Positions 3,435 to 18,847 of a DNA stretch of 64,000 bases are shown here, in pieces. Origin of the DNA: Candidatus Iainarchaeum sp. (GTDB lineage: Archaea > Iainarchaeota > Iainarchaeia > Iainarchaeales > VGJJ01); NCBI GenBank assembly GCA_043803765.1, contig JAZDJQ010000014.1, positions 1,382 through 65,381 of the forward strand, given 5' to 3'. A program made the translations under genes and the position numbers. How positions within the stretch are numbered: the first letter of the stretch is position 1; every line of letters starts with the position of its first letter. The notes beneath the pieces are model-generated. The model did not search any database. It was not told where the DNA came from and worked only from the letters and a program-made list of their open reading frames with translations.

Positions 3435-3442
3435 CACTTTTA

Positions 3443-3563: not shown

Positions 3564-5006
3564 TTATTTAATGGACACTCCAGCTGACCAGCCCATAGTC
3601 CCAATAATATTTCGATCCTTATCCGGGCTCATTTCTGCAAGCTTTTGGGCATATTCGGCGAGCATCTTTTCAGCGCCTGAGCCAAGCCGAGTAAAGGTAT
3701 CAAGCCAATACCGCTGGAGAACTTGGTAAGGGATGTAATCTGATTCCTCCAAAAAGGGAAATTTTTCGATTAGTTTCCGATAAGCAGGCGATCCTGGAAT
3801 AATAAATACAATACTCGCAATCACTCTTTCCATGATATCAAGGTTGGCTTTCACAAAATCGACGTTTTCCTTGAGGGATTCTTCAGTTTCTCCGGCCAAT
3901 CCCAGAACAAATCCTGCTTGGATCAAAATGCCATATTTTCTCGCCAAATCAATAGCCTTCTGATGAATTCCCTTTGTTGTCCCCTTCATGTTCAATTTTT
4001 GGACATTGTCATTGGCCGAATCAAAGCCAATGTAGATAATGCGCGTGTTCAGTTTCTTCAGCGCAGCAAAAGAGCGCTCGTTGGCAAAGAGGCTTTGGAC
4101 GTAGAAAATCCACCCAAGGTCATATTCATCATACAATTTTCTCAGCGGTTCATAAGTGACCAGACGCTCTAACATTTCAATCTCAGGCGCAGCGTTATCC
4201 CCATAACATTTCAAAGTTACTTTGGAGCCTTTTGGAACGCTCCACTTTTCAAGATAATGTTTGATTTCATTCGTCACGGCTTCCGGACTTCGAATGGACA
4301 CCACATCCTTCAATCCACAGAATGAACAATAAGCAAATTCATCAGTTGGAATATTTTTCCCCAACTTCAATCGGTTATCCCGATAGCGGCAACCGAAATG
4401 GGTGAAAACCTGGAACATGTACGGTGAAGTAGCATCGATCCTTTCCTGAAAATTCTTCCAATATTCTGAAATGGAAGGAATAAGAATGGACAAATCCAGC
4501 GGCACACTTTCCTCCCAGACATATGGGGCATCTTCCTCTTTCATGTGGACAACGTTTCCGTTTTGATGAAAAGATAAATTGGGAATGCCAGAATAGTTTT
4601 GAGAGCCAATAAGTTGTTCGTAAAGATCGAGGAAAACTTTCTCGCCCTTACCCCGGATCATGAAATCGAAGATATCACCACGAAATGTTCCAATTTGCCG
4701 GTACATTTCGGTAACATAAGGGCCACCCAAAACAATTGTTTTCCCTTGATGCTTGAACCGTGATGCCAAGACAATAGCTTGGTGGTAGACCAGCGAGCTG
4801 GAAATGGAAATGCATACAACATCACCAGTCACCAGATTGGGGGATGCTCCCGCACTGAGATCAATAACTCTGGCGATATTTGGATATTTTTTGTTGAGTC
4901 GTGTCGCCAATGCGAGCAATCCAGTAGGATAGTAGATGGCTACGTTTGCTCCCAGACTGCCTATTTCAACGGGCACGGTAATGAAGTCGACTGTCCGATG
5001 ACCCAT
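3564..5006 (-). CDS. B12-binding-domain / radical SAM family protein.
   Basis: N-terminal Rossmann-like B12-binding region (VVCISISSS...GKTIVLGGPY). Cys cluster GCRYRDN...x20...YCSFCG. C-terminal TIM-barrel-like region. Confidence 0.5.
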   Translation of the reverse strand: MGHRTVDFITVPVEIGSLGANVAIYYPTGLLALATRLNKKYPNIARVIDLSAGASPNLVTGDVVCISISSSLVYHQAIVLASRFKHQGKTIVLGGPYVTEMYRQIGTFRGDIFDFMIRGKGEKVFLDLYEQLIGSQNYSGIPNLSFHQNGNVVHMKEEDAPYVWEESVPLDLSILIPSISEYWKNFQERIDATSPYMFQVFTHFGCRYRDNRLKLGKNIPTDEFAYCSFCGLKDVVSIRSPEAVTNEIKHYLEKWSVPKGSKVTLKCYGDNAAPEIEMLERLVTYEPLRKLYDEYDLGWIFYVQSLFANERSFAALKKLNTRIIYIGFDSANDNVQKLNMKGTTKGIHQKAIDLARKYGILIQAGFVLGLAGETEESLKENVDFVKANLDIMERVIASIVFIIPGSPAYRKLIEKFPFLEESDYIPYQVLQRYWLDTFTRLGSGAEKMLAEYAQKLAEMSPDKDRNIIGTMGWSAGVSIK

Positions 5007-5063
5007 TCAAGTTATGTATCACAACGAGGGTATTATATTCTTGCTGTAAATTATTTACGACAT

Positions 5064-5825
5064 ATGGGCCAAATCGAGAATGCATTAACCAAATATGGAC
5101 TATCCCAAAAGGAGGCAAGCATCTATGCTGCCTGCATTTCGTTGGGAGAGGCAACTGCAAATGAAATCGCCCAAAAGAGTCAAGTTCCAAGAACGTTGAC
5201 ATACGACATTCTCGAACGACTAATGGAAATGGGACTGATTTCCCATCAACTCCAAAATGGAGTCAAATCGTTTGCTGCAGCAGACCCGGACGAATTACTA
5301 CACATTCTGAAAGAAAAAGAAACGGCCATCAGAAAAGCAATGCCTGAATTAAAAGCAATCCAAAAACAAACTGGTTCACGAAGACCCAAAATAAGTCTCT
5401 ATGTTGGGAAAGACGGGATGAAAACGGTCATGAATAACATCTTACGTTCGAATACGAAGGAATTCCTGGCATATGGCAGTTCAAGGTCATCCTACGAATT
5501 GATTCCGGCATTCATGGAACGGTGGCACCAAGAACGAATCGAAAAAGGGGTGTTGATGCGGGCCATTTACAACGATACGAAACAATCCAGGCAGCGCATC
5601 CAAAAATACCAAAAGTCCCTTCGATTATCAGAGTACAGAGTATCCCCTATTACACTCGAATCACCGACAGCCACCCTTATTTATGGGGAAAACGTCATCC
5701 TTCAATCATGGACCCCTGAACCATTCGCTGTTCTCATTCAATCCAAAGAAATGGCCGAAAACCAACGAGAATACTTCAATCAATTATGGAAGGTCATTGG
5801 GAGTAGCTCAGCCAGTTATCTATGA
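5064..5825 (+). CDS. TrmB-family transcriptional regulator (N-terminal HTH). Divergent from the radical SAM gene.
   Basis: LSQKEASIYAACISLGEATANEIAQKSQVPRTLTYDILERLMEMGLI matches the TrmB HTH. An ATG at 5064 avoids overlap with the upstream gene. Confidence 0.6.
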   Translation: MGQIENALTKYGLSQKEASIYAACISLGEATANEIAQKSQVPRTLTYDILERLMEMGLISHQLQNGVKSFAAADPDELLHILKEKETAIRKAMPELKAIQKQTGSRRPKISLYVGKDGMKTVMNNILRSNTKEFLAYGSSRSSYELIPAFMERWHQERIEKGVLMRAIYNDTKQSRQRIQKYQKSLRLSEYRVSPITLESPTATLIYGENVILQSWTPEPFAVLIQSKEMAENQREYFNQLWKVIGSSSASYL

Positions 5826-5852
5826 CAGATAGGGATATTGAACTGAACGATA

Positions 5853-5905
5853 CAATGCCTCGGGGGCGAATAGAAGATAGGGGTAAACTGCCTTTTGTAA
5901 TGAAC
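5853..5905. repeat. tRNA-Met 3'-end core (caatgcctcggggg) followed by a roughly 45-nt conserved extension. Paralogous copy at 14672-14722.
   Basis: Alignment of 5853-5905 against 14672-14722: gcctcggggg..gaagatag.ggtaaactgcc.tttgtaa.gaacaata. Confidence 0.6.
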
Positions 5906-6027
5906 AATATGCAAATGGAAATACCCATAAGATTTCATATCAACAATCCGTATGCCTGCTGTGGATTCTGCGGGGATTGGATCAAACAAAAAAAAACTCG
6001 TTGCATGGGTAAGTTAGAGCAAGGCAT

Positions 6028-7317
6028 TCACTCATAACGTAAAGCCTCAATAGGTCTTAACTTAGAGGCGGTTCGTGCCGGGATGAGTCCTGCAATGACC
6101 CCGATAATGGTGGATAAGATAATGGCCATTAGAATCAACTCAATGGAAACATAGGTAGATGCTCCTCTCGCACCGGGCGTAGGAATGAAGCCCATTCCGG
6201 AAATGGCAAACGAAACAATCGTTCCTAAAATGACCCCAATAATCCCTCCCACGAATCCAAATAACCCTGACTCCATGACAAAAAGCAACAAAACTTCATT
6301 ATTGGTTGAACCCAATGCCTTGAGTATTCCTATTTCCTTTGTCTTTTCCAATACGGAAGTGAACATACTGTTAGCAACCCCCAGCGCTCCTACTACTAAT
6401 GATACTGCTGCTATCGCACCCAAGAAAAGAGTCAATGTTTCGGTTACCGAACCCACTTGTTCTTGAACGGCCTGCGAGGAAGTAACCGAAAAATCTTGGG
6501 TACGTTCAGTCACTTTCCGCGAAATTTGTAGGGAAGCCGTCAAGTCCTGCGTCGTCTGTTCCACTAATTCAGGGGCGGAAACCTTTGCTTGAATACTTGT
6601 GTACGTATCGCGGTTTACATCTTCCACTGTGTTCCACGCACTATTCAGGGACATGTAAATCGTGTTATCGCTTCCGCTTCCTCCAAATCCAGATCCTGAA
6701 GCAGAAAGAATTCCTACCACAGTGAAGGGCTTATCCTCCAATGTAATAATTCGGCCCAAGGTAATAGGTTGTTTGAATGTTTCATTCGCAATTCGATCTC
6801 CAATCACCACCCCGATTGAATCACTTGCTGTCAATAAACGTCCCGAAGCGAGAGAAACATTCGATGTCTGTGGCCACGTCGTGGGGTTAACCCCCTGCAC
6901 GCTCACATTGGATTTTTCTCCAACAAAAACGAGTTCTCCTCGGCCTGAAACAATTTCCGTGACCAATGTCACGTTGGGATTTGCGTTGATAATGATAGAG
7001 TCCTTTTTCGTTAAGGTTGGTTCCTCATCTGTTGTGCTGGTTGAGTTCGTGATAGTAATGGCACCCGACTCACCTCCTCCGGCTCGAAATCCTCCTCCGA
7101 ACCCTTGGGCACGACTAAAACCGGGAGAAATAGTAATGATGTCTGCACCAAAACCGGATAATTGTTGTTGCACATTCGCCTGTGCTCCCTCTCCAATTGA
7201 AATGATTGAAACCACTGCCGCCACTCCAATGATAATTCCCAATAGGGTAAGCCATGACCGTAGGCGGCGATGAAGAATACTGTTCAGAGATAAGGAAAAT
7301 GAATCCTTCAGCTTCAT
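6028..7317 (-). CDS. ABC transporter permease, MacB/FtsX type (N-terminal TM, large periplasmic domain, C-terminal FtsX 3-TM domain).
   Basis: MKLKDSFSLSLNSILHRRLRSWLTLLGIIIGVAAVVSIIS is a MacB-like N-terminus. C-terminal TM bundle. Confidence 0.8.
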   Translation of the reverse strand: MKLKDSFSLSLNSILHRRLRSWLTLLGIIIGVAAVVSIISIGEGAQANVQQQLSGFGADIITISPGFSRAQGFGGGFRAGGGESGAITITNSTSTTDEEPTLTKKDSIIINANPNVTLVTEIVSGRGELVFVGEKSNVSVQGVNPTTWPQTSNVSLASGRLLTASDSIGVVIGDRIANETFKQPITLGRIITLEDKPFTVVGILSASGSGFGGSGSDNTIYMSLNSAWNTVEDVNRDTYTSIQAKVSAPELVEQTTQDLTASLQISRKVTERTQDFSVTSSQAVQEQVGSVTETLTLFLGAIAAVSLVVGALGVANSMFTSVLEKTKEIGILKALGSTNNEVLLLFVMESGLFGFVGGIIGVILGTIVSFAISGMGFIPTPGARGASTYVSIELILMAIILSTIIGVIAGLIPARTASKLRPIEALRYE

Positions 7318-7322
7318 TCCAT

Positions 7323-8879
7323 TTACCTCTTTTCCTTTTTACTACTGCGATTCAGCAATGTCTTTGCTTTTTCCCTCCAATCATTGCGAAAAAACAACAC
7401 CAATCCTATAAGAGAAAGGATGCAGGATACTCCGATGGCTATCTCGTTTCGATTCAAAAGCAAGATAGAAATGAGAAAAACGACAACGATACCTGCCAAC
7501 ACTTTGAGCAACGAAGTCCATTCTCTTTTCGCTTTGAAATGATTGTATCCAATTCCTCCAATTAACACAACGGCGAGTAACCCCCAGGCAAGAAGCGGCG
7601 AAAGACCTGTCGACATCGCCCGATTCGTTTGTCCTATTCCACTATTCAAAGAATTGGCACTCAAACTAATAGTCTTAGTAACGGTTTGCCGCTCTCCTGT
7701 TGTGTCCGTGTAGGCAATTTCCAATTCAAGTGTGCGTGGGATGGGCGGGGCAAACATATTGGTGTCACCTCTACCGGTCGGACGACCTTGAAATCCACTG
7801 CCAAAGCCGTCCGTCCCAGAACCTTGCGGCAAAGTAGAGGTGTCCATTGTTCCGGTTCCAGATAACCCGCTCGCTGTTCCAAGTTGGAATGTTGCAATCG
7901 TAAAGTCTCCTTTATTCAGATTTCCCAATATGGAGATATTGCTTCCGCTCGATGAAACATTCAGCAACTTGGCAACCACTGCGCCTGCATTATTGGAGCC
8001 GATGTTGGCGATACTCACGGACAACTGGTTGCTTACCATTTCTCCACTTACTTCAAAATCGGTTTTTCCGCCAATGATGACTCCTATTTCGGAGGCTTGT
8101 TCTTGGTCCCCGTTGCTATCCGTAAAACTCACATTAATGGACAGGGGATAGATTCCTGTTGTAATATTGGGATCGGCGGCAACAGTGTACTGTAGGGTTG
8201 CCTTTTCTCCTGCGGGGATAATGGGAATGTAGCGTTTGTTATCCGTGCCTACTGGTAAAATAAGCGAGCTTTCTTCTGTCCACGAGAATGAAATATTGGA
8301 TACCGCGGTTCCCCCTACATTCGTAAGAGTAAACGTCACATTCGTTTGGTTCCCGGGATTGATGATGCGGGGTTCGAGTGTCACATCAATGTTTTTCTCG
8401 GCTCCGGACACTGGAATAATTATTTCGTGATTTTCGGTGACGGGAACTCCGTTTCGAATATACGAAAGGGTTAAGAGAGTGGGATAATGACTTGGAGGAG
8501 TATCCGCCTTTATGCGGAAAGTAAAAACCAGTGTTTTGGTTGCATCCGGTAAAATGGAAGAAGCACCATCCTCGATATCCATGGGATCGAATTGTTCTCC
8601 AATATCCAATAATCCATTCAAATCCTGAATGGTGATCGAAGCACCTTTATTGTGAACATCTACTGCCAGACTCACGACGTCACCTGCGTAAATGGTATTC
8701 GGTAGAAAAGTGGTTCCTTGTATTTCAGCCAAATACGCAAATTCACCAGAATAATCCCCTAATTGAGCATGAACGAGTGGAATGGATAATCCAATTCCCA
8801 AGAAGACGAACGCGAAAAATAACAGCGGCCCCCTTCGCATAATATTCCATTCAGTATTTTCATTTTTCCATTCCATCAT
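7323..8879 (-). CDS. Large extracellular or surface protein of the ABC operon (signal peptide, beta-rich repeats, C-terminal TMs).
   Basis: N-terminal signal/TM FFAFVFLGIGLSIPLVHAQ. C-terminal TM helices plus a basic tail. Gene order ATPase - surface protein - permease. Confidence 0.5.
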   Translation of the reverse strand: MMEWKNENTEWNIMRRGPLLFFAFVFLGIGLSIPLVHAQLGDYSGEFAYLAEIQGTTFLPNTIYAGDVVSLAVDVHNKGASITIQDLNGLLDIGEQFDPMDIEDGASSILPDATKTLVFTFRIKADTPPSHYPTLLTLSYIRNGVPVTENHEIIIPVSGAEKNIDVTLEPRIINPGNQTNVTFTLTNVGGTAVSNISFSWTEESSLILPVGTDNKRYIPIIPAGEKATLQYTVAADPNITTGIYPLSINVSFTDSNGDQEQASEIGVIIGGKTDFEVSGEMVSNQLSVSIANIGSNNAGAVVAKLLNVSSSGSNISILGNLNKGDFTIATFQLGTASGLSGTGTMDTSTLPQGSGTDGFGSGFQGRPTGRGDTNMFAPPIPRTLELEIAYTDTTGERQTVTKTISLSANSLNSGIGQTNRAMSTGLSPLLAWGLLAVVLIGGIGYNHFKAKREWTSLLKVLAGIVVVFLISILLLNRNEIAIGVSCILSLIGLVLFFRNDWREKAKTLLNRSSKKEKR

Positions 8880-9608
8880 TTATCCTCTCCTGAGTCGATT
8901 TTTTCCATCGTAACTAATTTTGCCATCCTTCATCTCAATGACGCGGTCCGCATACTTGGCAATATTTGGTTCATGCGTCACCAATACAATCGTCTTTCCC
9001 TGCTTGGAATGCAAGTGGTCTAAGATATCCATGATTTCGTAACTCGTCTTCGTGTCCAAATTTCCAGTAGGTTCATCCGCTAACACCATCGAAGGATTGG
9101 CTGAAAGTGCGCGGGCCACTGCTACCCGTTGCCGTTCTCCTCCAGACAGTTGAGCGGGAAAGTGACTGACACGATGGGAGAGTCCCACTTGGGAGAGTAA
9201 GTCAAGGACCGTTTTCTCAATCGTTTCTTCTTCCAATTCATGAATGCGCATGGGCAGGGCTACATTGTCAAAAACTGTCAACGTGGGATGAAGATTGAAG
9301 GTCTGAAACACAAACCCAATCGTTTTTCCACGCAAACGTGAGACGTGGGATTCATCAAGCGTAGAAAGTGGCTGGCCATCCAAGAGGACTTCCCCTTTGG
9401 TTGGAATATCCAATGCTCCGACTAAATTGAGAAGAGTGGATTTACCCGAGCCGGACGCACCCATTATTGCCACAAACTCCCCTTTTTGGATGGTTAAATT
9501 AACTCCTTTTACGGCAGGGACTTCCACTTGGTCCATTTGGTAGATTTTCCACGCATCCTGGATTTGCAGTAACGGCACCGATCTCTGAATCATGATTTGA
9601 ACACCCAT
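8880..9608 (-). CDS. ABC transporter ATP-binding protein (MacB/LolD-like).
   Basis: Walker A GASGSGKST, signature LSGGERQRVAVARAL, Walker B LADEPTGNLD. Confidence 0.9.
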   Translation of the reverse strand: MGVQIMIQRSVPLLQIQDAWKIYQMDQVEVPAVKGVNLTIQKGEFVAIMGASGSGKSTLLNLVGALDIPTKGEVLLDGQPLSTLDESHVSRLRGKTIGFVFQTFNLHPTLTVFDNVALPMRIHELEEETIEKTVLDLLSQVGLSHRVSHFPAQLSGGERQRVAVARALSANPSMVLADEPTGNLDTKTSYEIMDILDHLHSKQGKTIVLVTHEPNIAKYADRVIEMKDGKISYDGKNRLRRG

Positions 9609-9819
9609 TCAATCATTCAAAAAGCATTCCACTAATTAGACCCAAATCTCACACGGATTAAGGATACTCATTCTATTCTCCAAAATGCCTGTTTCAGCGT
9701 TGGATAAATAAATACGCACGGCAGGGCATCGCAGTATGGGAAAAATTCCTTGGGGGATCCAAGCAGCAAGATGGGACACCTCATTAAAGGAGGAAATATA
9801 AAACCTGAACGATGTCCTG

Positions 9820-10299
9820 TTGAACATGCCTACTCGGCGTTCCCGCAGCCATCGAATAACCCGCCTGTACTACGCCATCAGCCCACGCATAATTCATTTA
9901 GTGGTGGAAAAGGTGGTTTCCAAAAAAAGATTAGGGGAGATACGCGAACACGTACTTGGAAAAAGTATTGTGGAAAGAGAAGGCCGCATCCGATCCACCC
10001 CTGAAGGGCATGTGTGGGCCCTCATCTATAATGGAACAAGCAAATCATGGAGTGAGCTATCGGATGCGCAAAAGGAAAGACATCTGCATCATGTTCTGCA
10101 ATTCATTGGAAAAAATGACGTATTGGTCTCCCTTAGAAGAATACAAAATCTTATGGGAACTAATGAAATAGATGAATTGGGTAGAACTTCTAGACGATCC
10201 GAGCAATACGAAACATTGGTAGAAAGAATACGGCGCAAACAAAACGCGCACTCCATCATTGAAGGCATTATCCGAAAAGTGCAAGAAAAACAAAAATAG
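9820..10299 (+). CDS. Hypothetical protein.
   Basis: ORF only; no recognisable motif. Confidence 0.3.
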   Translation: MNMPTRRSRSHRITRLYYAISPRIIHLVVEKVVSKKRLGEIREHVLGKSIVEREGRIRSTPEGHVWALIYNGTSKSWSELSDAQKERHLHHVLQFIGKNDVLVSLRRIQNLMGTNEIDELGRTSRRSEQYETLVERIRRKQNAHSIIEGIIRKVQEKQK

Positions 10300-10317
10300 A
10301 CGAATGGGAATGGTTTA

Positions 10318-10344
10318 GTGCCTCTGGAATCGACTTGAACTCCC
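10318..10344. repeat. Degenerate tRNA-Met 3'-fragment-like repeat. It shares 26 nt exactly (tgcctctggaatcgacttgaactccc) with 11815-11840.
   Basis: Direct repeat flanking the ATPase gene. T-loop-like gagttcaagtc on the minus strand. Confidence 0.6.
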
Positions 10345-10494
10345 AACCAACGGGTTACGAACGGGTGTCTGCTATTTTTATTTTATTAGAAATTTCGACA
10401 GGGGACGTACTTTCAATATCATTGAAAATAAAATGGATTCTCTTTTCATTACTATTGAAAAGGTTTATATATGGATTTGGAGTAAGTAGAATGG

Positions 10495-11775
10495 ATGGAA
10501 CGCGTTGCACTAGAGTTTGTGGTAAAGGACCAATTTGAAAATCTCCAAAAAAAGGAGCGAGGGTTGCCGCGTGAAACATTGGGTCGAATAACTCCGTTAA
10601 TGCGGCATAAAAGTGCGGTAGTTGTAACAGGAGTTCGTCGCTGCGGGAAATCAACCCTTTTGTTCCAGGTAATGGACCGGTTTTTCTCAAAGGGATTTTT
10701 TTACTTGAACTTTGCCGATGAACGATTGAACGATTTTGAAACAAGGGATTTTCAAGTATTGCATGAGATACTGATTAAGGAATTCGGGGACCAAAAAACA
10801 TTTTTTTTGGACGAACCTCAAGGGAAAAACGGCTGGAACCAATTTGTTAACCGGCTCTATGAAAACGGATACAAGTTCTTTATTACGGGATCAAATGCGG
10901 AGCTATTGAGCAAGGAAATTTCCACTTATTTGACCGGCAGGCACATGGATTTTCCGCTTTTTCCTTTTTCATTTAAGGAGATGTTATCCTTCAGGAATGC
11001 CGGGAAAACGATTAGGTCAACCCAAGACAAGGTACAAATTGAAAGCGCGTTTGAAAAATACATGGAAAAAGGCGGTTTTCCCGAGGTTTGGACGCAGGAA
11101 AACACCGATATTCTGGTTAAAGTATATGATGATATTATCAACAAGGATATTTTGGTTCGGCACCAAGTAAAAGACCAAAAGACATTCAAGGATTTGGCAC
11201 TCTTCCTCATATCCAATTGCGGGAAAGAATTTTCATATAACGCATTAAAAAAACAATTCAATCTTGGAAGCCCTAACACGGCCAAAACGTTTGTCGGATA
11301 TCTAACGGATGCGTTCCTGCTTATCGAGATAAATCAATTCGATTTTTCCTTAAAAAAGCAGGGCTTTTTGCCCAAAAAAATATACGGAATCGACACAGGA
11401 TTAGTCAATAAGATGGGGTTTCGCCTTTCTGACGACAACGGAAGGTTGTTGGAAAATATCGTTCTTCTCGAGCTGCTTAGACAGAACCAAAAAGTATTTT
11501 ATTGGAAAGATGACAAACAACGAGAGGTCGACTTCCTAATCATAGAAAAAAATAAGGTAAAGGAAGCTATCCAAGTTTCTTTTGAATTATCCGATGCTAA
11601 AACGAAAGATAGGGAAATAACCGGGCTAATCAGTGCGATGAAAAAATTCAATCTACAAACGGGAACGATTCTTACACGCCACACGGAAAAAAGCGAAAAG
11701 GCAGATAACAAAACCATCCATTTCATTCCGGTGTGGAAATGGCTAATCGAAAACGACCAATCCGCTGAACATTAA
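10495..11775 (+). CDS. COG1373-type AAA+ ATPase (DUF4143-like C-terminus), intact.
   Basis: Walker A GVRRCGKST; Walker B-like FFLDEPQ. Collinear with the pseudogene at 2178-3434. Confidence 0.75.
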   Translation: MERVALEFVVKDQFENLQKKERGLPRETLGRITPLMRHKSAVVVTGVRRCGKSTLLFQVMDRFFSKGFFYLNFADERLNDFETRDFQVLHEILIKEFGDQKTFFLDEPQGKNGWNQFVNRLYENGYKFFITGSNAELLSKEISTYLTGRHMDFPLFPFSFKEMLSFRNAGKTIRSTQDKVQIESAFEKYMEKGGFPEVWTQENTDILVKVYDDIINKDILVRHQVKDQKTFKDLALFLISNCGKEFSYNALKKQFNLGSPNTAKTFVGYLTDAFLLIEINQFDFSLKKQGFLPKKIYGIDTGLVNKMGFRLSDDNGRLLENIVLLELLRQNQKVFYWKDDKQREVDFLIIEKNKVKEAIQVSFELSDAKTKDREITGLISAMKKFNLQTGTILTRHTEKSEKADNKTIHFIPVWKWLIENDQSAEH

Positions 11776-11812
11776 TCAACTACAACAATGAATGTTGAAC
11801 TGGATGGGACAA

Positions 11813-11864
11813 TATGCCTCTGGAATCGACTTGAACTCCCTACCTCTTGGTTATGAATCCGGCG
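11813..11864 (-). repeat. Degenerate partial copy (pseudo-tRNA) of the 3' roughly 50 nt of tRNA-Met(CAU) on the same strand. Putative attL of the integrated element.
   Basis: Minus strand reads GCCGGATTCATAACC..GGGAGTTCAAGTC....CC.GAGGCA against the tRNA GCCGGATTCATAACCCGGAGGCCGGGAGTTCAAGTCTCCCCCGAGGCA, about 75% identical. The T-stem is no longer complementary. Confidence 0.55.
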
Positions 11865-11882
11865 TGATATTTGCCAGCCTCA

Positions 11883-12278
11883 TCACTTTGCTCCCATGTT
11901 GTTCCCAACGTGCGTGTTTTTCTTTCGGGTTAGACGCTTGAACTTTTTGTTCAATGCTTCGATATCCCTCAAAATCATGCGCTTTAGAACAGTCCATTCG
12001 TACACATTAAGCGTTTTCCCGGAGTATTTGTGGTAGTATTTCCGGGAAAGCGTTTCCGGCGCATCCTCCATCTGCATGAGCTTCCCTTTCCAGAAAACTA
12101 GGAGATATATGTTTCCATTGTGTAGTTCCATGGGCGCGCTCCACCCGCGATAGTGTTTTTCCTCGCAATAGGGAGAAAGATCATCCATCTTTTGGAGATC
12201 CTTTTTGGTCATAGAATTTAATCGCGCGCCAAAATCATTGTGTCTTAGAAAAATAGTTGTGGTTCCCATTCGTTTCAC
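11883..12278 (-). CDS. Hypothetical protein.
   Basis: ORF only. Confidence 0.3.
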   Translation of the reverse strand: MKRMGTTTIFLRHNDFGARLNSMTKKDLQKMDDLSPYCEEKHYRGWSAPMELHNGNIYLLVFWKGKLMQMEDAPETLSRKYYHKYSGKTLNVYEWTVLKRMILRDIEALNKKFKRLTRKKNTHVGNNMGAK

Positions 12279-12303
12279 CTCATTCTCTTTTTTTTTGAAT
12301 TTT

Positions 12304-13008
12304 TCATTGCACCTTTTTTATTTTTTCGACAAGCTCCTTTTTCTTTTTGGTCCATTCGTTGTAGTTTATTCCAAGATAGCGTTTGGAATCAATGGGGTTG
12401 AATTGGGTTATTTCCGTTAGTAGCTCGCGCGGGTAATTCTTTTTCCGGTATTTTTCAAGCAGCTCCTGATATTTTTTTAGGTCAATAGGGGCATATACCA
12501 GTAATGTCAAAATATCAATCGTATCTTTTTGCCCCTTGATAGATTCCCTTCGGTCTATTTCCGCTCCCTGTTTTAGGATTAACAACATTTCGCTGCGAAT
12601 GGTTTTTATCCCTTCGATTTGGATTGTTTCTTTCAAGAGGTCTTCGATGGGGATGGCCAGAGTCGAATAATATGGAGTATAAATGTCGATATCGAATTCC
12701 GATAGTTTTATTTCATATTTTTTTAGTCGATCGTTTTTTTCCAACGAGTATTTTTTCTTTAGAATGGAAAGCGTTTCAAAGTCAACAAGGATGTCGATGT
12801 CTTTACTCTTGTGTTGTTTTGTCCATAACCATACACTCCACCCACCAATAACAGTCAGATTTATCTCCTTGGAAAGCTCCTGTAGCTTCTTCCAACTTTT
12901 TTCCGTCAGGCTTTCGTGCCAGAATTCAGTGGTTCGCATTATTCCAACCCCATTCGGCGCCGCAATGCCTGAATAAATTCCTTGGCATACCATTCTTTCA
13001 GATTCCAC
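12304..13008 (-). CDS. Nucleotidyltransferase-fold protein (minimal pol-beta-like NTase motif).
   Basis: VIGGWSVWLWTKQHKSKDIDILV fits hG[GS]-x13-DxD. A further acidic motif EFDIDIY follows. Confidence 0.4.
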   Translation of the reverse strand: MESERMVCQGIYSGIAAPNGVGIMRTTEFWHESLTEKSWKKLQELSKEINLTVIGGWSVWLWTKQHKSKDIDILVDFETLSILKKKYSLEKNDRLKKYEIKLSEFDIDIYTPYYSTLAIPIEDLLKETIQIEGIKTIRSEMLLILKQGAEIDRRESIKGQKDTIDILTLLVYAPIDLKKYQELLEKYRKKNYPRELLTEITQFNPIDSKRYLGINYNEWTKKKKELVEKIKKVQ

Positions 13009-13502
13009 AAATCCACAAACAATAGCTCATTAGACACAATTTTAATGGATTCGAGAATAGGAGGTGTTGCCAGAACAATAAGATTGGTCGGTCCATCATG
13101 AGGCGGAAATCTTTTTTTGATTTCAGAAAGGGTCTCCACATCGGCATACACGTATATTTCACTATAATCAGCCGGCACATCATCGAATCGAAATTTATAT
13201 CCACTAAAAGCAGTGAAAACAGCTTTCGCCGGCATCATTTTTTCGATATTGCGGACGCTGCCAGTGTGGGTTCGATAAATGATATCCCTGTCCAGATTCC
13301 GCATGTTTGCCCAATAGATGAGAGCCTTTTCCCGGTCTATTATGCGAAAACCGAATTTCCTTTTTTCGATAGCTCCCAACCGAGCAAGGGGACCCAACGC
13401 ATGATTCACCGTACTTAATGAAATTCCCCATTTTTGGGCTATTTCCAATTGGGTTTTAGCTCCCTGAAATAGAGAATAGAACACCCATTCGGATTTCTTC
13501 AT
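12939..13502 (-). CDS. Winged-helix DNA-binding protein, overlapping or partnering the NTase gene.
   Basis: N-terminal wHTH (TQLEIAQKWGISLSTVNHALGPLARLGAIEKRK). 70-nt overlap with the downstream NTase ORF. Confidence 0.4.
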   Translation of the reverse strand: MKKSEWVFYSLFQGAKTQLEIAQKWGISLSTVNHALGPLARLGAIEKRKFGFRIIDREKALIYWANMRNLDRDIIYRTHTGSVRNIEKMMPAKAVFTAFSGYKFRFDDVPADYSEIYVYADVETLSEIKKRFPPHDGPTNLIVLATPPILESIKIVSNELLFVDLWNLKEWYAKEFIQALRRRMGLE

Positions 13503-13933
13503 AGTAATAATATCCCATAAGTGTTTATATTGCTTTCGAATATCGTCGAAATAACTCCACTATACACAATGGGGATAGGACCCCAATTAAGCAGCCGGTT
13601 GGTAGCCGTACTTGTCCATGTGTAGGTGTCGAGCATAGGACACCATAATTTGGATAGGACCAACTCGATGGATTTCTTTTTTCGGGAGTCGGTTTCATTA
13701 TCATGCAAATCTTGGAGGACAATATACAAATCCACGTACATGGAACCATCAAAACGACGACCCATCGGTCGCAGGTTTCCAAAAGTGTTTACCGCGGCAA
13801 ACCTCACTTTTCCGCTTTTGTCTACAATATTTTTGAAGAAAACATCCATGACTTCTCCGATTTTCTCGTCAAAAATGGCTGAAATGGAAATAAAGAAATA
13901 CGCGGATGAAAAATACGCAGCGGAGGGTAACAC
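13499..13933 (-). CDS. Hypothetical protein.
   Basis: ORF only. Confidence 0.25.
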   Translation of the reverse strand: MLPSAAYFSSAYFFISISAIFDEKIGEVMDVFFKNIVDKSGKVRFAAVNTFGNLRPMGRRFDGSMYVDLYIVLQDLHDNETDSRKKKSIELVLSKLWCPMLDTYTWTSTATNRLLNWGPIPIVYSGVISTIFESNINTYGILLL

Positions 13934-13960
13934 TTTATTCTAGGGTGATAGAATCCGGCG

Positions 13961-14390
13961 CTATGGCAGACTCTCGATTATTTCTTTTGTGGAATAGATT
14001 TTGATTTTTTCTTGCGTTCCCAAAAGTTTATCGTTTGTCCAAATGGGAGACTTTTCTTTTAAAGCGAGGGCTAGAAAATCAATGTCTTCCGACAGTTCCT
14101 TATGATGGGTTTTTTCGGTCGATTCGATTAAATTTTTCGCTGTTTTCAAAAAAGAAGAATATTCTTCCAGTGGAATGAACTCCACACACGGCCAAATCAA
14201 ATCGTGCTTTTTCAAACTCTTCAATGGTTATTTCCGTTTTGTGCAATATCTCTTTTTGATGATTGTTTATCTCCTCTAACGCATACTCAGGAGAAACGAA
14301 TTCAAAGTCCTGACTGGTTGACAGTGACTTGAAAACAGAATTAGACCAAAAACAGGTAATCAGAATATTGGTATCGACCACGAGCTTCAT
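13961..14390 (-). pseudogene. PIN-domain (VapC-like) toxin gene split by a frameshift.
   Basis: N-terminal MKLVVDTNILI (ORF 14100-14390). The C-terminal PIN motif DIDFLALALKEKSPIWTNDKLL lies in the overlapping ORF 13961-14224. Homopolymer runs occur in the overlap. Confidence 0.6.
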
Positions 14391-14432
14391 TCATATCAAG
14401 CCCTTTGCCTTCAAGGAATCTAATCGGCCCTT

Positions 14433-14597
14433 TCAGTCCATTCGTACCAATTTGACAGACCAGCCCGAAATCGCTTCTTCTTCATTCAGTTTTCCAATCA
14501 ACTGTTTCTTCCGCTCAAAAGAAAGAATAGTCAAAACCTTTTCTTCAATATCTGACAGTTTGGCTTGAATCTGCTTGAGAGTAACCGCTTCGCTCAT
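14433..14597 (-). CDS. Putative antitoxin (54 aa) immediately upstream of the PIN gene. Below the ORF-track cutoff.
   Basis: My own translation of the minus strand gives MSEAVTLKQIQAKLSDIEEKVLTILSFERKKQLIGKLNEEEAISGWSVKLVRMD. It ends 40 nt before the PIN start. Confidence 0.35.
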   Translation of the reverse strand: MSEAVTLKQIQAKLSDIEEKVLTILSFERKKQLIGKLNEEEAISGWSVKLVRMD

Positions 14598-14671
14598 ACA
14601 ACAAAATCATTCCTTAGACTATAAAAACACGCTTTAACCAAAACACCAAAATGCACTTTATTCCTGGACAA

Positions 14672-14722
14672 TATGCCTCGGGGGAGGGTGGAAGATAGCG
14701 GTAAACTGCCATTTGTAAGGAA
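14672..14722. repeat. tRNA-Met 3'-end core (atgcctcgggggag) plus a conserved extension. Paralog of 5853-5905.
   Basis: Exact 14-nt core, then roughly 45 nt that is about 85% identical to the 5.9-kb copy. Confidence 0.6.
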
Positions 14723-14822
14723 CAATACCGAACAGTATGTAGGAGTAAATAAAGGTTTCCGAGCCTGCGAGGGGGACATCACCATTTTGGAAAGCAAATC
14801 GATAGTTATTTTTTCAGATTGA

Positions 14823-15221
14823 TCATATTTTCTTTTTTGCTCCAACTTGCATCAACCGCTTTTGAATGTCCGTAAAAAGATTGTCTATTTTTTCGATTTC
14901 TTTGGCATCAAATGTGTATCCTACACCTTTGTAAACAAAAATTTGTGGATTTGTCCCAATAACAGGATTGCCGTGCTTTGTGATATTTGCCACATGGTTT
15001 AAGGAGCCAAGATCTTTATCCAATTGGACTAAATCGACTTCAGTTCCGATCTTTTCGGCCAATTTTAAAAATCGTTTAAAACGATTTAGTGTTGAACCAG
15101 TTTGTGATACCTGATGTTGATGTAAAACACTATTGATAATTATTTCCGAGCTGTTGATCATCGTGGTCACACGGCCAATAAACTGTTGTGCATCAAATAT
15201 TTGACGCTCAAATTCTTCCAT
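14823..15221 (-). CDS. Hypothetical protein.
   Basis: ORF only. Confidence 0.3.
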   Translation of the reverse strand: MEEFERQIFDAQQFIGRVTTMINSSEIIINSVLHQHQVSQTGSTLNRFKRFLKLAEKIGTEVDLVQLDKDLGSLNHVANITKHGNPVIGTNPQIFVYKGVGYTFDAKEIEKIDNLFTDIQKRLMQVGAKKKI

Positions 15222-15232
15222 TCAAACACCGC

Positions 15233-16525
15233 CTATCGCGAATCAGGATTTTCACGCAGATTAATTATCCAGTAAAACCCTGCTCCAATTATTAAAAATA
15301 AAAATAAAATCTGAAGATAGCCCCAGTCACTTGTTTGATCCCAATAAGAGTTGTAAAACACGGTTCCTTTGAAGGCCTTATCCTTGGCTGATGCATAATG
15401 TCCTGCTTTGTATTCAGATTCGCTTCCACTATTGTATAAAACGTAGCCGAGCCAGCTAACTATTTTCAGAGGATTTCCTTTGGACATGTTCTTTTCACGC
15501 AAATCGTTTTCTAAACGCATTTGGGTGTCGGCTGGTCGTTGCAAATCAGCCAAGGCCGAACGATACTTGTCATTTGCCAATTTGCTTTCCGATATTACAT
15601 TTTGAGTGGCGAGTACACTCGGCTCTATGTCCTTTTTGAAATTGTAACCGATGCAATACTGTTCACTGGTTCCAAGATTCCCAATCGCCTCTACCGGCTC
15701 GGAAAAATCAATCTCATCTGATTGAGTTAAAATCCAGAGCGCGAAGTTCGTTTGATCGATGCGTGAGACTGTTTCGCTCGAGTAGTTTCGATTTTTCGCG
15801 TCGTAAAACGGTTGCCGGATTTCATTTGACAGGTTGAACATCGACAAGTCAACCTTGTCCGTGAGGGTACATGAAAGATCGCGTGTTAGCTGTAGGAAAA
15901 TGAAATATTCTGATCCTTGAATGGCCACTACCTTTTTTGAAAAGCGAATCCATTCTCTGCCGGCACGCTCGACAATTTCCCATCCATTTTGTTGCGCCTT
16001 TTCAGCAAATACATCAAAAACTTCTTCGGGAACGGTGGCTGAAATATTCCAAACGTTCGAGTCCACGAAGCTTACGATTTTTCCCGTAAAATTACAAATG
16101 TCGTTGGCCCCAGAAGCCCATTTCTTACACTGAATAGTGTTATCATATGTGGAAAAGGGGAGCTGGTAAATGCTGTTGTAATGGTAGATTGCTTCGAAAA
16201 CCGTTTGCGACTCATTTTCGTTCGTCACGAAACGACATTGGCCACTTTCATTTTTTACGAGGGCTGTCCAATTGGAATCGAACGTCAAGAGGAAGTAACT
16301 TTTTTCATCAAATTCGAGATTCTGGTATTTGAAATCGGGGTTAAACGACCCGTATTCGGGGGCAAAATGATTTGCGTCACAGTATTGAATGTACGCGTAG
16401 TTCGTTTTCGGCTCAATGATATTTCTATCGCCAAGTCCCTTAGCGGCAAACATGAAAAGCCAGCTCCCAACAACCACTACAAGGATGATTGCCACGACCC
16501 ATGCATCCACTTTAGAACCAGACAT
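15233..16525 (-). CDS. Membrane-anchored extracellular protein (TM helices at both ends).
   Basis: N-terminal AWVVAIILVVVVGSWLFMF; C-terminal ILFLFLIIGAGFYWIINL. Confidence 0.4.
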   Translation of the reverse strand: MSGSKVDAWVVAIILVVVVGSWLFMFAAKGLGDRNIIEPKTNYAYIQYCDANHFAPEYGSFNPDFKYQNLEFDEKSYFLLTFDSNWTALVKNESGQCRFVTNENESQTVFEAIYHYNSIYQLPFSTYDNTIQCKKWASGANDICNFTGKIVSFVDSNVWNISATVPEEVFDVFAEKAQQNGWEIVERAGREWIRFSKKVVAIQGSEYFIFLQLTRDLSCTLTDKVDLSMFNLSNEIRQPFYDAKNRNYSSETVSRIDQTNFALWILTQSDEIDFSEPVEAIGNLGTSEQYCIGYNFKKDIEPSVLATQNVISESKLANDKYRSALADLQRPADTQMRLENDLREKNMSKGNPLKIVSWLGYVLYNSGSESEYKAGHYASAKDKAFKGTVFYNSYWDQTSDWGYLQILFLFLIIGAGFYWIINLRENPDSR

Positions 16526-16580
16526 TAAATAGCAAAATATTGATTAACACCTTTTCAACCTTTCGGAGTTTATCATTAGA

Positions 16581-17276
16581 ATGGACCCCCAAATCAAAGA
16601 TGTTCTCACGCTTCTCGACGAAGCGGCCCATAAACGATGGTCGATTCGAGAAGAGCAGTTCAAGATGTATAAAATTGATACAACCGCAGTCGCCCAAGCC
16701 CAACAAATGGGTTTTATTCATTGGACCGGCGCAAACTATATTCTCACCGCAACAGGTCACGAAAAATTGTTACAATACGAGTCAGTCGATTCTCTACGAG
16801 AGATCCGAAAACACCTCCGAGTGGATAAAAAAGGCGTCATTTTTGATAGCAACGCGTACGATAAAATTCTAGAAGGAGCTTTGACAAAGAGTGATATCGA
16901 ATTGAGCCGACACAAAGGATTCGATTATTATATCACACACATCCAGGCAGACGAGGTTGTGCGTTGCCCGGAAGTCGACAGACGCCAGCGATTAACCCTT
17001 GCAATGCTCACGCTAAAGCCAATTGTTATCCCTACCGATTCAACGGTAGCAGGAGTATCACGGGTGGGATTTTCACGGTTAAGTGATGGACAAGACATGG
17101 AAAGCATTCGTAATGGCAGTCAAAGGCATACGAATGACGCATTGATAGGAGAAACTGCAATAAAAAATAAATTAATTCTTGTAACAGAGGACGATAGGCT
17201 TCGAACCAAAGTAAAAGATGCGAAGGGTATCGCAATGACTATCGCTGAATTCAAAAATGAAATCGAAAAAGAATAA
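16581..17276 (+). CDS. PIN-domain protein with an N-terminal extension of about 80 aa.
   Basis: GVIFDSNAY (first Asp motif) and the C-terminal DALIGETAIKNKLILVTEDD (PIN C-terminal motifs). Confidence 0.55.
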   Translation: MDPQIKDVLTLLDEAAHKRWSIREEQFKMYKIDTTAVAQAQQMGFIHWTGANYILTATGHEKLLQYESVDSLREIRKHLRVDKKGVIFDSNAYDKILEGALTKSDIELSRHKGFDYYITHIQADEVVRCPEVDRRQRLTLAMLTLKPIVIPTDSTVAGVSRVGFSRLSDGQDMESIRNGSQRHTNDALIGETAIKNKLILVTEDDRLRTKVKDAKGIAMTIAEFKNEIEKE

Positions 17277-17809: not shown

Positions 17810-17827
17810 TCATTCTATCTCTAAAAA

Positions 17828-18831: not shown

Positions 18832-18847
18832 ATTTTCGCTCCATCGA

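Follow-up and report, generated by a model that had tools for sequence, protein, structure and literature searches.

The spread of single-gene defence systems that carry no mobility genes of their own is, to our knowledge, poorly understood. A 64,000-nt stretch of a Candidatus Iainarchaeum sp. contig (JAZDJQ010000014.1; hereafter, the window) poses the problem in a compact form: a single ATPase gene stands between two short direct repeats that resemble the end of a tRNA gene, downstream of an integrase-bearing element, and the question is how the gene came to lie there. We conclude that the locus most likely belongs to a known type of genomic island, of which it is an unusually minimal example. 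Within it, we think it somewhat probable that the ATPase unit is an integrase-less, att-flanked mini-element, similar to a cis-mobilizable element (CIME) or to the remnant of a tycheposon, which was added to an accretion array.

The direct repeats consist of a perfect core and diverged arms

A search of the window for TGCCTCTGGAATCGACTTGAACTCCC, with up to 3 mismatches allowed, returned exactly two matches, both on the plus strand and both perfect (DR1 and DR2, Table 1), and none was returned from 100 shuffled sequences (chance expectation, 0). The perfect repeats that the sequence-only reading had described around the ATPase gene are therefore real. Read on the minus strand, DR1 corresponds to a degenerate T-arm followed by the acceptor 3' end of tRNA-Met, GGGAGTTCAAGTCGATTCCAGAGGCA. 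The two copies are identical at 26 of 26 positions, and both depart from the intact tRNA-Met in the same way, by a 1-nt insertion and by substitutions in the 3' strand of the T-stem and in the acceptor strand, in agreement with the claim that they were copied from each other. The likeness to the 3' end of tRNA-Met was also borne out, but the 26-mer is not the whole repeat; it is the perfectly conserved core within a repeat of about 58–60 nt, which as a whole is imperfect (80% identity; 10319–10377 versus 11815–11872), and the 26-mers with their extensions align to tRNA-Met positions ~27–73. Repeats lying within a longer duplicated block had been named in advance as an outcome that would count against the sequence-only reading, and the repeat does extend in this manner, to a somewhat longer 58-nt repeat. 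When the longer repeats were aligned over 60 columns, 48 columns matched, and all 12 differences fell on one side of the 26-mer (p = 4e-4).

ARAGORN predicted five tRNAs in the window, none of them at DR1 or DR2, and a search with Rfam gave no tRNA match at either copy even at E ≤ 10. In addition, the 59-nt repeats folded no better than shuffled sequences on either strand (z 0.5–0.7). Neither copy is thus a tRNA gene.

The unit between the repeats carries one candidate defence gene

Between 10319 and 11840 there is one real gene, the ATPase gene, as had been claimed; the two antisense ORFs within it look spurious, and the unit contains no gene for integration or transfer. The start codon lies 150 nt from the end of DR1, and the stop codon lies 39 nt from the start of DR2. 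The encoded protein has an N-terminal AAA_14 domain (PF13173, 1.5e-34) and a C-terminal DUF4143 domain (PF13635, 1.2e-22), and it matches the PDC-S01 model PDLC04787 at 8.2e-114. Genes of the COG1373/PDC-S01 type are among the commonest candidate defence genes in prokaryotes, and the ATPase is a candidate anti-virus defence protein. The canonical PD-(D/E)XK motif (D ... E-x-K) is missing from its DUF4143 domain; instead, E-x-D-F ... Q-V-[CSTVA] is present in all 29 aligned sequences of the subfamily. No solved structure matched the ATPase profile. The closest relative of the protein, 70% identical, is encoded in an unrelated context and without repeats.

A second COG1373 gene in the window is 36% identical to the first (tblastn, 2223–3422), so the pair does not stem from a recent duplication. 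The sequence-only reading had described this paralog as interrupted by an in-frame stop and followed by an att core, and both features were found: the gene is a pseudogene with an in-frame TAA at 2499–2501, and the core TGCCTCGGGGGAG begins at 3443, 8 nt past the stop codon, in the same gene-to-core geometry as in the main cassette.

Table 1. Features of the tRNA-Met array and of the ATPase cassette (positions in the window)
Feature	Position	Strand	Remarks
Second COG1373 paralog and att core	2178–3455	+	gene 2178–3434, core 3443–3455
att core and arm	5856–5909	-	arm 87% identical to left end of element A (14673–14727)
ORFs either side of cassette	9820–10299; 11883–12278		o159; o131
DR1	10319–10344	-	perfect 26-nt core
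Arm A1	10345–10377	-	diverged, anticodon-arm/variable-loop-like; cassette side of DR1, in register with the tRNA
Putative ATPase operator	10412–10459	+	palindromes TTCAnT-N3-AnTGAA at 10412–10426 and 10445–10459, 33 nt apart
TATA-box-like TTTATATA	10464–10471	+	~25 nt before ATG; putative promoter
COG1373 ATPase	10495–11775	+	intact, 426 aa; AAA_14 P-loop and DUF4143 (PD-(D/E)XK-like); PADLOC PDC-S01
Cassette right end (P' arm)	11776–11814	.	terminates in GGACAATA (11807–11814)
DR2	11815–11840	-	second perfect copy of 26-nt core
Arm A2	11841–11873	-	anticodon-arm-like, part of module Y; CGCCGGATTCATAACC identical to tRNA-Met
Module Y	11883–13551	-	o131 (11883–12278), 234-aa ORF (12304–13008), HTH protein (12939–13502)
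tRNA-Met-like fragment ATAGCGCCGGATTC	13951–13964	-	junction of module Y and frameshifted PIN_2 unit (13965–14673)
Canonical att core	14674–14686	-	CTCCCCCGAGGCA on minus strand; distal end of element A
Tyrosine recombinase	30786–32075	-	Phage_integrase family, XerA-like; 61 nt from tRNA 3' end
tRNA-Met (CAT)	32137–32210	-	intact; primary attachment site of the array

The cassette is part of an array downstream of tRNA-Met

The integrase-bearing element next to the tRNA, element A, extends over 17.4 kb (14688–32136). Its tyrosine recombinase is the only integrase in the window, and when this protein was used in a tblastn search, no integrase remnant came to light in the rest of the window. The core that belongs to the recombinase is TGCCTCGGGGGAG and not the 26-mer. 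Downstream of the tRNA and on the same strand as the tRNA there are six tRNA-Met-derived junctions, which begin at 3443, 5856, 10319, 11815, 13951 and 14674, and all six fragments end at one base, the 3' end of the tRNA. The junction at 5856 is the distal junction of an integrase-less segment (5869–10318). This segment and a further one without an integrase (3456–5855) carry ordinary-looking genes, including those for a radical SAM protein, a TrmB regulator and an ABC transporter, so the array could be largely old debris. Searches of the neighbouring small ORFs against PHROGs and NCBIfam gave nothing useful.

The sequences that flank the cores tie the cassette to the other junctions. The octamer GGACAATA at the right end of the cassette is also the arm to the left of the core at 14674 (11807–11823 versus 14666–14682, 16 of 17 nt, 94%), and the same cassette end resembles the arm to the left of the core at 5856 over a 43-nt match (5813–5855), with a score reached in none of 300 shuffles. 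Around the two 26-mers themselves, all four arms are different: A1 and A2 are 65% alike, and GGACAATA and GGTTTAG are unrelated.

A model for insertion of the ATPase cassette

In the model that we favour, site-specific recombination at the tRNA-Met 3' end would have inserted the modules of the array one by one, leaving co-oriented tRNA-Met-derived junctions between them. The ATPase element would comprise 10345–11814 plus one 26-mer, 1.5 kb in all, with the candidate defence ATPase as its sole cargo, together with the gene's own operator and promoter. The two 26-mers would represent the common core of attL and attR, with the crossover inside the 26-mer or at its edge. The attP of the circular cassette would have been composed of arm A1 (read from 10377 to 10345), the 26-mer and TATTGTCC... 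(complement of 11814–11807), and the resident att of arm A2 (the end of module Y), the 26-mer and CTAAACC.... A tyrosine integrase, such as the one adjacent to the tRNA, would have supplied the recombinase in trans. The order of events may also have been the opposite, with the cassette entering the tRNA first and module Y being added beside it later, which would give the same end product. The predicted empty site would be ACGAATGGGAATGGTTTAG + TGCCTCTGGAATCGACTTGAACTCCC + TACCTCTTGGTTATGAATCCGGCG, and the predicted circle junction GTTGAACTGGATGGGACAATA + 26-mer + AACCAACGGGTTACGAACGGGTGTC.

Several observations are consistent with this model. Arm A1, which lies inside the cassette, continues the similarity to the tRNA in register, so the incoming DNA appears to have carried its own pseudo-tRNA, and A1 can be read as the putative cassette-borne half of the cassette's attP. 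The restriction of the 12 differences to one side of a perfect core is what an attP × attB product would show, and not what duplication followed by drift would leave; thus, of the two histories proposed in the sequence-only reading, plain duplication of an att scar around the gene fits poorly. The other, insertion of a mini-cassette at an existing att, is favoured by the four different arms, the tRNA register of A1, the recurrence of GGACAATA and the boundary of module Y described below, but neither an empty site nor a circular form was found. Relatives with a single 26-mer and no ATPase gene had been suggested as a check, and none of 185,579 reference genomes and none of the JGI metagenome contigs contained an exact match to a 22-mer of the repeat; this search yielded no empty site and no circle junction. 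We infer a circular intermediate, an acting recombinase and movement as a 1.5-kb unit, as opposed to a leftover of something larger.

Relatives of the neighbouring module place a boundary at the 26-mer

The module next to the cassette (11841–13551) recurs as a block in three metagenome contigs, L088, L089 and L090, with 83–89% DNA identity, and the homology of these contigs to the window ends at 11839–11850, the inner edge of the 26-mer. Arm A2 is contiguous with module Y in all three relatives. Beyond the boundary, the T-arm-like piece differs from contig to contig or is absent; the T-arm-like part thus varies among the copies of module Y, and any placement of the crossover is tentative.

One of these contigs, L088, contains another COG1373 ATPase, which is 25% identical to that of the window, retains EVDF...IEIK and is encoded in an ATPase-only unit of the same geometry, in which 25 nt separate the core from the 3' end of the gene and 64 nt lie between the 5' end of the gene and an anticodon-arm fragment. 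The order of the modules differs from that in the window: the ATPase unit of L088 lies on the other side of module Y, which indicates that the modules were assembled independently.

ATPase homologs are bracketed by repeats more often than other genes

The sequence-only reading had proposed that ATPases of this family are repeatedly associated with att cores. This holds for both paralogs in the window and for the distant COG1373 gene of L088, but it does not extend to a family-wide association with tRNA genes, as a tRNA lies no more than 600 bp away in only 3 of 98 homologs, against an expectation of ~2. Orphan T-arm hairpins, sought near the homolog genes under strict criteria, likewise numbered 0, against 0.4 expected.

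We then looked at flanking repeats of any kind. Exact repeats of at least 20 nt bracket 11 of 92 homologs (12%), compared with 4 of 608 random segments and 1 of 125 other genes (~1%; Fisher p = 4e-4). There are about ten independent single-gene brackets of ~1.4–1.9 kb, and near-identical units of gene plus operator occur in flanks that are unrelated to each other. The operator motif pair, counted with the 3-nt spacer pattern (a 4-nt spacer pattern was discarded), is present upstream of 21 of 98 homologs, against an expectation of 0.0076 per gene. Many related ATPase cassettes, for example L006 and L008, have no flanking repeats.

The bracketed homologs have various targets. In L045 the target is an HMA gene and in L030 a phosphatase gene, in each case at the 3' end; in both, the second copy of the repeat is a homeologous, in-frame copy of the 3' end of the target gene, and the differences between the copies in L030 are mostly synonymous. 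This is the same design of a core plus a captured target as in the window. The targets of L059 and L016 are terminator-like hairpins. For L045, a bacterial locus with a clean bracket, the nearest relative, L083, was rejected as an empty site, since it is a decayed insertion with 59 C-terminal codons of the ATPase and one repeat copy, and a search of the JGI metagenome collection for an empty site of L059 gave no match.

Alternative origins of the bracket

The bracket could also have arisen by decay, in which case a larger element integrated at tRNA-Met, with an integrase and further genes of its own, would have lost everything except the ATPase and both att junctions, and the 1.5-kb unit would never have moved as such. 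Serial integration commonly ends in arrays of decayed elements among which partial tRNAs are scattered (PMC5704250; bioRxiv 10.1101/2020.12.28.424599). In line with this, the neighbouring segments of the array are also without integrases, one unit has a frameshifted PIN gene, the other ATPase paralog is a pseudogene, and L083 exemplifies an ATPase insertion eroded by deletion. However, the deletions would have had to spare both junctions, a core identical at 26 of 26 positions, an intact gene and its operator; the second, unrelated ATPase-only unit with this geometry in L088 is a further point against decay, and the independent single-gene brackets and the near-identical gene-operator units in unrelated flanks argue that the gene travels alone. 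We regard decay as rather improbable, though deserving of some weight.

A dedicated recombinase may not have been needed if the gene was inserted with a long target duplication, or if a looped-out circle with a short homeologous copy of the target recombined with the resident pseudo-tRNA in a single, Campbell-type crossover of the RadA/RecA kind. The repeats are enriched around the ATPase family in many phyla, at targets other than tRNAs and with no integrase nearby, and the closely related cassettes L039 and L059 differ in their repeat sequences. Other defence genes show the same behaviour, some of them at tRNAs (Furuta et al. 2010, PMC2853133), and a single crossover in the longest identical stretch would also leave a perfect core with diverged arms. 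In contrast, target duplication predicts near-identical copies (44–47 of 46–47 nt in the published cases), and those in the window match at 48 of 60 columns with clustered differences; an identity of 26 nt is, moreover, short for homologous recombination. The left edge of the repeat is exactly the tRNA 3' end that the other junctions of the array use, and the arm motifs at the cassette ends are common to other junctions, which points to the array's own site-specific system and makes an origin without such a recombinase unlikely.

Local rearrangement, either gene conversion that homogenised two att scars or a tandem duplication in which the content of one copy was replaced, would make the bracket uninformative about the ATPase, and related scars close by could have served as conversion substrates, but we consider it very improbable, as conversion would have had to stop exactly at the edges of the 26-mer between flanks without other similarity, and the enrichment of brackets across the family would be left unexplained.

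The integrase-less mini-element that we favour for this locus could have a counterpart across the family. PDC-S01 genes would then form widespread, recombinase-less, single-gene mobile cassettes, each consisting of an operator pair, a promoter and an ORF, which use a short copy captured from the target to integrate in Campbell style at the 3' end of a tRNA gene or of a protein gene, and which accumulate in arrays alongside toxin-antitoxin modules; we put this generalisation forward as a doubtful one. In its boldest version, the AAA+/wHTH/nuclease-like protein itself may help to move its own gene. Modules of the pdif/Xer type were considered and rejected: distant homologs are present on 170 Acinetobacter plasmids, and one example has neither pdif sites nor flanking repeats.

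Relation to known mobile elements

The locus and the family survey together give a concrete picture in which a very common candidate defence ATPase moves as a compact unit of gene plus operator, with about one ATPase in eight lying between short direct repeats in which a perfect core is joined to a diverged copy captured from the target. They also show that, small as their genomes are, DPANN archaea maintain mini-modules in an array linked to a tRNA, here an ATPase, a PIN toxin, an HTH module and a type III restriction-modification system, and that this array functions much as a platform for cassettes would. Should the 1.5-kb unit prove able to excise and reinsert, it would be among the smallest integrative elements known in archaea.

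The array resembles those in which CIMEs occur, the tandem accretion arrays of ICEs and IMEs such as the ICESt1/ICESt3-related islands of Streptococcus thermophilus (PMC5704250). There, too, repeated site-specific integration at the 3' end of a tRNA gene has built up an array, in which an integrase-less segment with attL and attR stands in tandem with an element that carries an integrase. Unlike CIMEs, the unit described here has an archaeal (DPANN) host, no conjugation genes, a single gene in 1.5 kb and an att that is a degenerate pseudo-tRNA, whereas the att of a CIME is an exact copy of the tRNA end; its mobilisation is putative. The tycheposons of Prochlorococcus (bioRxiv 10.1101/2020.12.28.424599) are likewise tRNA-linked islands in a streamlined genome, with older elements pushed outward, partial tRNA copies, degenerate elements and a cargo of defence and niche genes. 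They differ in recombinase lineage and host domain; the units in the window are much smaller, and the 26-nt core of two of them, the ATPase cassette and module Y, is identical.

The long target duplications of restriction-modification units (Furuta, Abe and Kobayashi 2010, PMC2853133) also involve a defence unit without mobility genes between direct repeats some tens of bases long, which in some cases lie at tRNA sequences, and the repeats are significantly enriched for the gene class. The published repeats, however, are almost identical over their whole length and are present as a single copy in genomes with an empty site, whereas those in the window have a perfect core and diverged arms and, with 48 of 60 columns matching, fall short of a near-identical repeat of >30 bp.

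Integron cassettes are similar in having one gene and one recombination site per unit, in being stacked co-oriented beside a primary site, close to a tyrosine recombinase, and in their frequent toxin-antitoxin or defence cargo. In contrast to them, the ATPase unit brings a promoter and an operator of its own, a tRNA gene serves as the primary site, and the integrase lies inside a 17-kb integrated element; an integron reading was rejected, as there is no attC-like folding and the integron-integrase model TIGR02249 scored 45.7 bits against a cut-off of 265.

IMEX elements lack a recombinase of their own, use the Xer recombinases of the host and carry the recombination site as a short direct repeat at either end. 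The ATPase cassette, similarly recombinase-less, apparently integrative and bounded by short direct repeats, differs from them in that its repeats are derived from a tRNA and are not dif-like, and in that the repeat sequence varies among loci in homologous cassettes.

Repeats that bracket a single ATPase gene

The 26-nt sequence TGCCTCTGGAATCGACTTGAACTCCC occurs twice on the forward strand of the 64-kb window (DR1 and DR2); no third copy with three or fewer mismatches was found there, and none arose in 100 shuffles. Read on the minus strand, both copies correspond to the T-arm and acceptor 3′ end of tRNA-Met, from which they differ by the same 1-nt insertion and by identical substitutions in the T-stem 3′ strand and the acceptor strand. 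Neither copy is a tRNA gene, because ARAGORN and Rfam (E ≤ 10) were silent at both; on either strand, the sequences fold no better than shuffled sequence. The sequence-only reading, which had described perfect direct repeats around one ATPase gene, both tRNA-Met-3′-like with shared derived substitutions, thus holds, and the repeat is real and non-random. The same reading had considered that the repeats might belong to a longer duplicated block. The likeness does reach about 58–60 nt (10319–10377 versus 11815–11872), into a stretch resembling the variable loop and anticodon arm, but at only 80% identity. None of the 12 differences touches the perfect block; they are confined to the 34 columns on its right (p = 3.9e-4 under uniform divergence).

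Coordinates of the cassette and associated features (window positions unless a contig is named)
Feature	Position	Strand	Remark
DR1	10319-10344	+	ends 150 nt upstream of the ATPase ATG
Arm A1	10345-10377		right of DR1; tRNA-like, in register, ~65% like A2
Palindromes TTCAnT-N3-AnTGAA	10412-10426 and 10445-10459
ATPase ORF	10495-11775		sole credible gene between DR1 and DR2
DR2	11815-11840	+	starts 39 nt past the ATPase stop
Arm A2	11841-11873		right of DR2; shares a 16-nt identical stretch with the tRNA anticodon arm
Second COG1373 paralog	2178-3434		36% identical by tblastn over 2223-3422
Tyrosine recombinase	30786-32075		Phage_integrase 8.7e-17, XerA-like; adjoins tRNA-Met
Intact tRNA-Met	32137-32210	minus
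11-nt repeat CCTCTGGAGCT	L091 3919-3929 and 5564-5574; L093 116-126 and 1761-1771

The encoded protein has the AAA_14 (Pfam 1.5e-34) and DUF4143 (Pfam 1.2e-22) domains of COG1373; against PDC-S01, a candidate defence model of PADLOC, it scores 8e-114. No solved structure matched its profile. Among defence candidates, PDC-S01, an ATPase fused to a PD-(D/E)XK domain, ranks fourth in frequency across prokaryotes; it shows enrichment in Archaea and awaits experimental validation (PMC12988326). DUF4143 appears in a published list of PD-(D/E)XK families, with its function given as unknown (PMC3424549). In the subfamily of the window ATPase, 29 of 29 aligned sequences have Q-V-[CSTVA] in place of the canonical E-x-K, so the nuclease site is non-canonical and any nuclease activity is doubtful. 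At residues ~344–362, these 29 sequences read E-x-D-F ... Q-V-[CSTVA], compared with EVDF ... IEIK in DUF4143 proteins like the ATPase of contig L088, and their motif III has neither an acidic residue nor a lysine. A 100% protein-database match is annotated in the NCBI MAG "Candidatus Diapherotrites archaeon". The public annotation (P0001) begins at Met36 (391 aa) and the window ORF has 426 aa; the longer form is probably correct, since homologs align from its first residue.

Four arms around two cores

The two 26-mer cores have four different neighbour sequences. To their right lie the arms A1 and A2. The sequence left of DR2 ends in ...GGACAATA; the same eight bases precede the att core (a short tRNA-Met 3′-end-derived junction sequence) at 14674, with 16 of 17 positions identical across the junction, and the 43 nt before DR2 resemble those before the 5856 core with a score reached in 0 of 300 shuffles. 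Left of DR1 is unrelated sequence. If a circular cassette with an attP of A1, the 26-mer and TATTGTCC... recombined with a resident site of A2, the 26-mer and CTAAACC..., exactly this four-arm arrangement would result. The ATPase unit therefore looks like an inserted element and not like a duplicated scar.

Our best explanation, which we hold somewhat more readily than its rivals combined, is an integrase-less, att-flanked single-gene cassette within a tRNA-Met accretion array of a DPANN archaeon. The architecture is already known in kind; its form here is unusually minimal. The cassette may instead be the last survivor of a larger element. No further integrase or integrase remnant was found elsewhere in the window, and the core of the window integrase differs slightly from the 26-mer. 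Entry independent of a recombinase, by long target duplication or by a short-homology single crossover, is possible, the former being documented for restriction-modification genes (PMC2853133). Of the two origins proposed in the sequence-only reading, insertion of a mini-cassette by site-specific recombination fits the four arms, and duplication of the scar around the gene fits poorly; a target duplication cannot explain A1, the inserted DNA's own in-register pseudo-tRNA start.

A 22-mer of the repeat was absent from the reference-genome and metagenome contig collections, and neither an empty site nor a circle was found for the window cassette. The sole relative found of a bacterial bracket (L083) has a truncated ATPase gene and one repeat copy; it was rejected as an empty site, being an eroded insertion, and shows that such insertions are eroded by deletions removing one repeat. 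Compared with L045 (2923–4611), this related strain keeps the last 59 ATPase codons and one repeat copy beside the HMA gene.

The tRNA-Met array

Next to the tRNA-Met comes the recombinase gene. The 17.4-kb element A (14688–32136), which includes it, also has a type III restriction-modification pair (N6_N4_Mtase, ResIII) and a gene resembling primases, and it ends at a second copy of the last 13 nt of tRNA-Met (14674–14686). Further tRNA-Met-derived pieces in the same orientation lie at 13951–13964, 11815, 10319, 5856 and 3443, and 6 of 6 pieces end at one base, the tRNA 3′ end. Outward from the tRNA, element A is followed by a frameshifted PIN_2 gene, module Y (an HTH protein, a 234-aa ORF and the 131-aa ORF o131), the ATPase, an ABC transporter segment, and finally a stretch encoding a TrmB regulator and a radical SAM protein. 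Serial site-specific integration at one tRNA is expected to give this layout. The ICE/IME literature calls such integration accretion (PMC5704250), and it has been described for tycheposon islands too, in which newcomers displace the older elements outward and partial tRNAs stay behind (preprint 10.1101/2020.12.28.424599).

As the sequence-only reading had it, the second paralog is interrupted (in-frame TAA at 2499–2501) and has an att core just downstream, beginning 8 nt past its stop codon. The PIN_2 unit (13951–14673), closed on the minus strand by the tRNA-Met-like fragment, holds the frameshift-split gene (14100–14390 and 13961–14224) and a small upstream ORF, and looks like a decayed toxin-antitoxin module; L088 (~1379–1464) likewise retains the 3′ end of this PIN gene as a remnant, together with the fragment. 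Element A has 20-nt inverted repeats at its ends (14691–14710 and 32115–32134; GGCAGTTTACCGCTATCTTC and a near-complement, 17/20), which would flank the att core on circularisation and are possible integrase binding sites; a third copy (5873–5892) adjoins the 5856 core. The restriction-modification pair lies within 20826–25775 (N6_N4_Mtase, 682 aa; ResIII helicase/endonuclease, 966 aa), and two adjoining Holliday-junction-resolvase-like endonuclease genes at 17828–18466 and 18334–18903; everything downstream of tRNA-Met thus forms one defence island. Separately, a 37-nt repeat (AAAAGCCTCTGGCTTGCCCACTTTTT...) occurs at 34407–34443, 35528–35564 and 35573–35609 near tRNA-Thr (35622–35694), two copies in tandem just downstream of it.

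Recombination boundaries in relatives

Homologs of o131, which lies beside DR2, are 82–87% identical. Contigs L088, L089 and L090 match the window at 83–89% DNA identity from 13551 or later down to 11839–11850, a span that covers module Y and arm A2 and ends at the inner edge of the 26-mer. Beyond it, L090 has a different degenerate T-arm-like piece and then a stretch that resembles what lies downstream of tRNA-Met in the window, and L088 and L089 have directly GGCA and then a different arm. A2 thus belongs to module Y, and the 26-mer sits at a recombination boundary. In L088, tRNA-Met-like fragments and another COG1373 ATPase (25% identical to the window protein, domains confirmed) precede module Y. 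That ATPase-only unit (25 nt between the core and the gene 3′ end, 64 nt between the gene 5′ end and an anticodon-arm fragment) has the geometry of the window cassette but lies on the opposite side of module Y; the two genomes therefore assembled their modules independently. It also bears out the recurrent association of these ATPases with att cores noted from the sequence.

Two further contigs, L091 and L093, encode P0013, a homolog 54% identical to the window ATPase. The two contigs show no difference along 1,771 nt and diverge fully from there on, directly past the downstream copy of the 11-nt repeat CCTCTGGAGCT, a polymorphism at strain level. A T-loop/acceptor-like motif, GAGGTTCAAATCCCCTCTGGAGCT, closes with the upstream copy, 71 nt ahead of the ATG, and akin motifs precede the ATPase genes of L086 and L095. 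By our own estimate the 11-mer repeat alone is weak evidence (~0.1 expected); the fact that the breakpoint falls just there suggests that recombination is live at this junction beside the cassette.

Bracketing repeats across the ATPase family

Across 80 loci with ATPase homologs from GTDB reference genomes, the att association did not extend to tRNA proximity (3 of 98 genes with a tRNA within 600 bp, ~2 expected). Exact bracketing repeats of at least 20 nt, and up to 47 nt, flank 11 of 92 ATPase genes; among random 1.25-kb segments this holds for 4 of 608, and among the loci's other genes for 1 of 125 (Fisher p = 4e-4 against the latter; p = 0.005 without three doubtful cases). By local alignment, 21 of 94 ATPase genes exceed a score reached by 8 of 453 controls. 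The upstream copy ends 60–370 nt before the ATG, and the downstream copy is usually within ~60 nt of the stop codon (~170–215 nt past it in two loci).

Repeat sequences are unrelated between loci, even for the 82% identical cassettes of L039 and L059, and are therefore target-derived. In L045, a convergent gene with an HMA domain supplies the repeat with its 3′ end, and a diverged C-terminus can still be read in frame from the second copy; the second copy in L030 differs from the upstream gene's 3′ end by mostly synonymous changes. These second copies are homeologous, from another lineage, and not decayed duplicates; both loci share the window's core-plus-captured-target design.

Near-identical cassettes (82–91% DNA identity) occur in unrelated flanks, their homology beginning at a palindromic motif ~35–90 nt before the ATG and ending a few bases from the stop codon. 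The palindrome, TTCAnT-N3-AnTGAA, usually present as a pair spaced 32–33 nt, precedes 21 of 98 COG1373 genes by no more than 200 nt in bacteria and archaea (loci including L002, L004, L006, L008, L021, L035, L038, L048, L055, L060 and L067), and 29 of its 31 occurrences in 813 kb are such sites. It marks the 5′ edge of the unit common to near-identical cassettes, and the pair is probably the ATPase protein's own operator. Evidence from across the family thus indicates that COG1373/PDC-S01 genes move together with their operator as one unit, often with target-derived repeats on both sides; in our view this by-product is more interesting than the window cassette and deserves a systematic survey.

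Several loci hold clusters of very divergent paralogs, or arrays whose junction repeat recurs between small modules such as PIN and AbrB-like ones. Such paralogs, 25–40% identical to the query, lie side by side in L074 (4525–12603; six in tandem on an Aenigmatarchaeota contig), L033 (five), L036, L068 and L080, separated by short repeated junction sequences, which suggests insertion hot spots or cassette arrays. A distant homolog (~29% identical) is carried by 170 Acinetobacter plasmids in PLSDB; in one example, pXH901, neither pdif sites nor flanking repeats were found at the homolog. In L087, a Candidatus Iainarchaeum genome of the window's phylum, the homolog P0037 is bracketed by a 55-nt repeat (91% identity; 9545–9599 and 10902–10956) that contains the palindrome TCCCTTTGCCAAAAGGA. 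Its upstream copy reaches to 35 nt from the ATG, so that in this locus the regulatory region of the gene itself seems to be part of the repeat.
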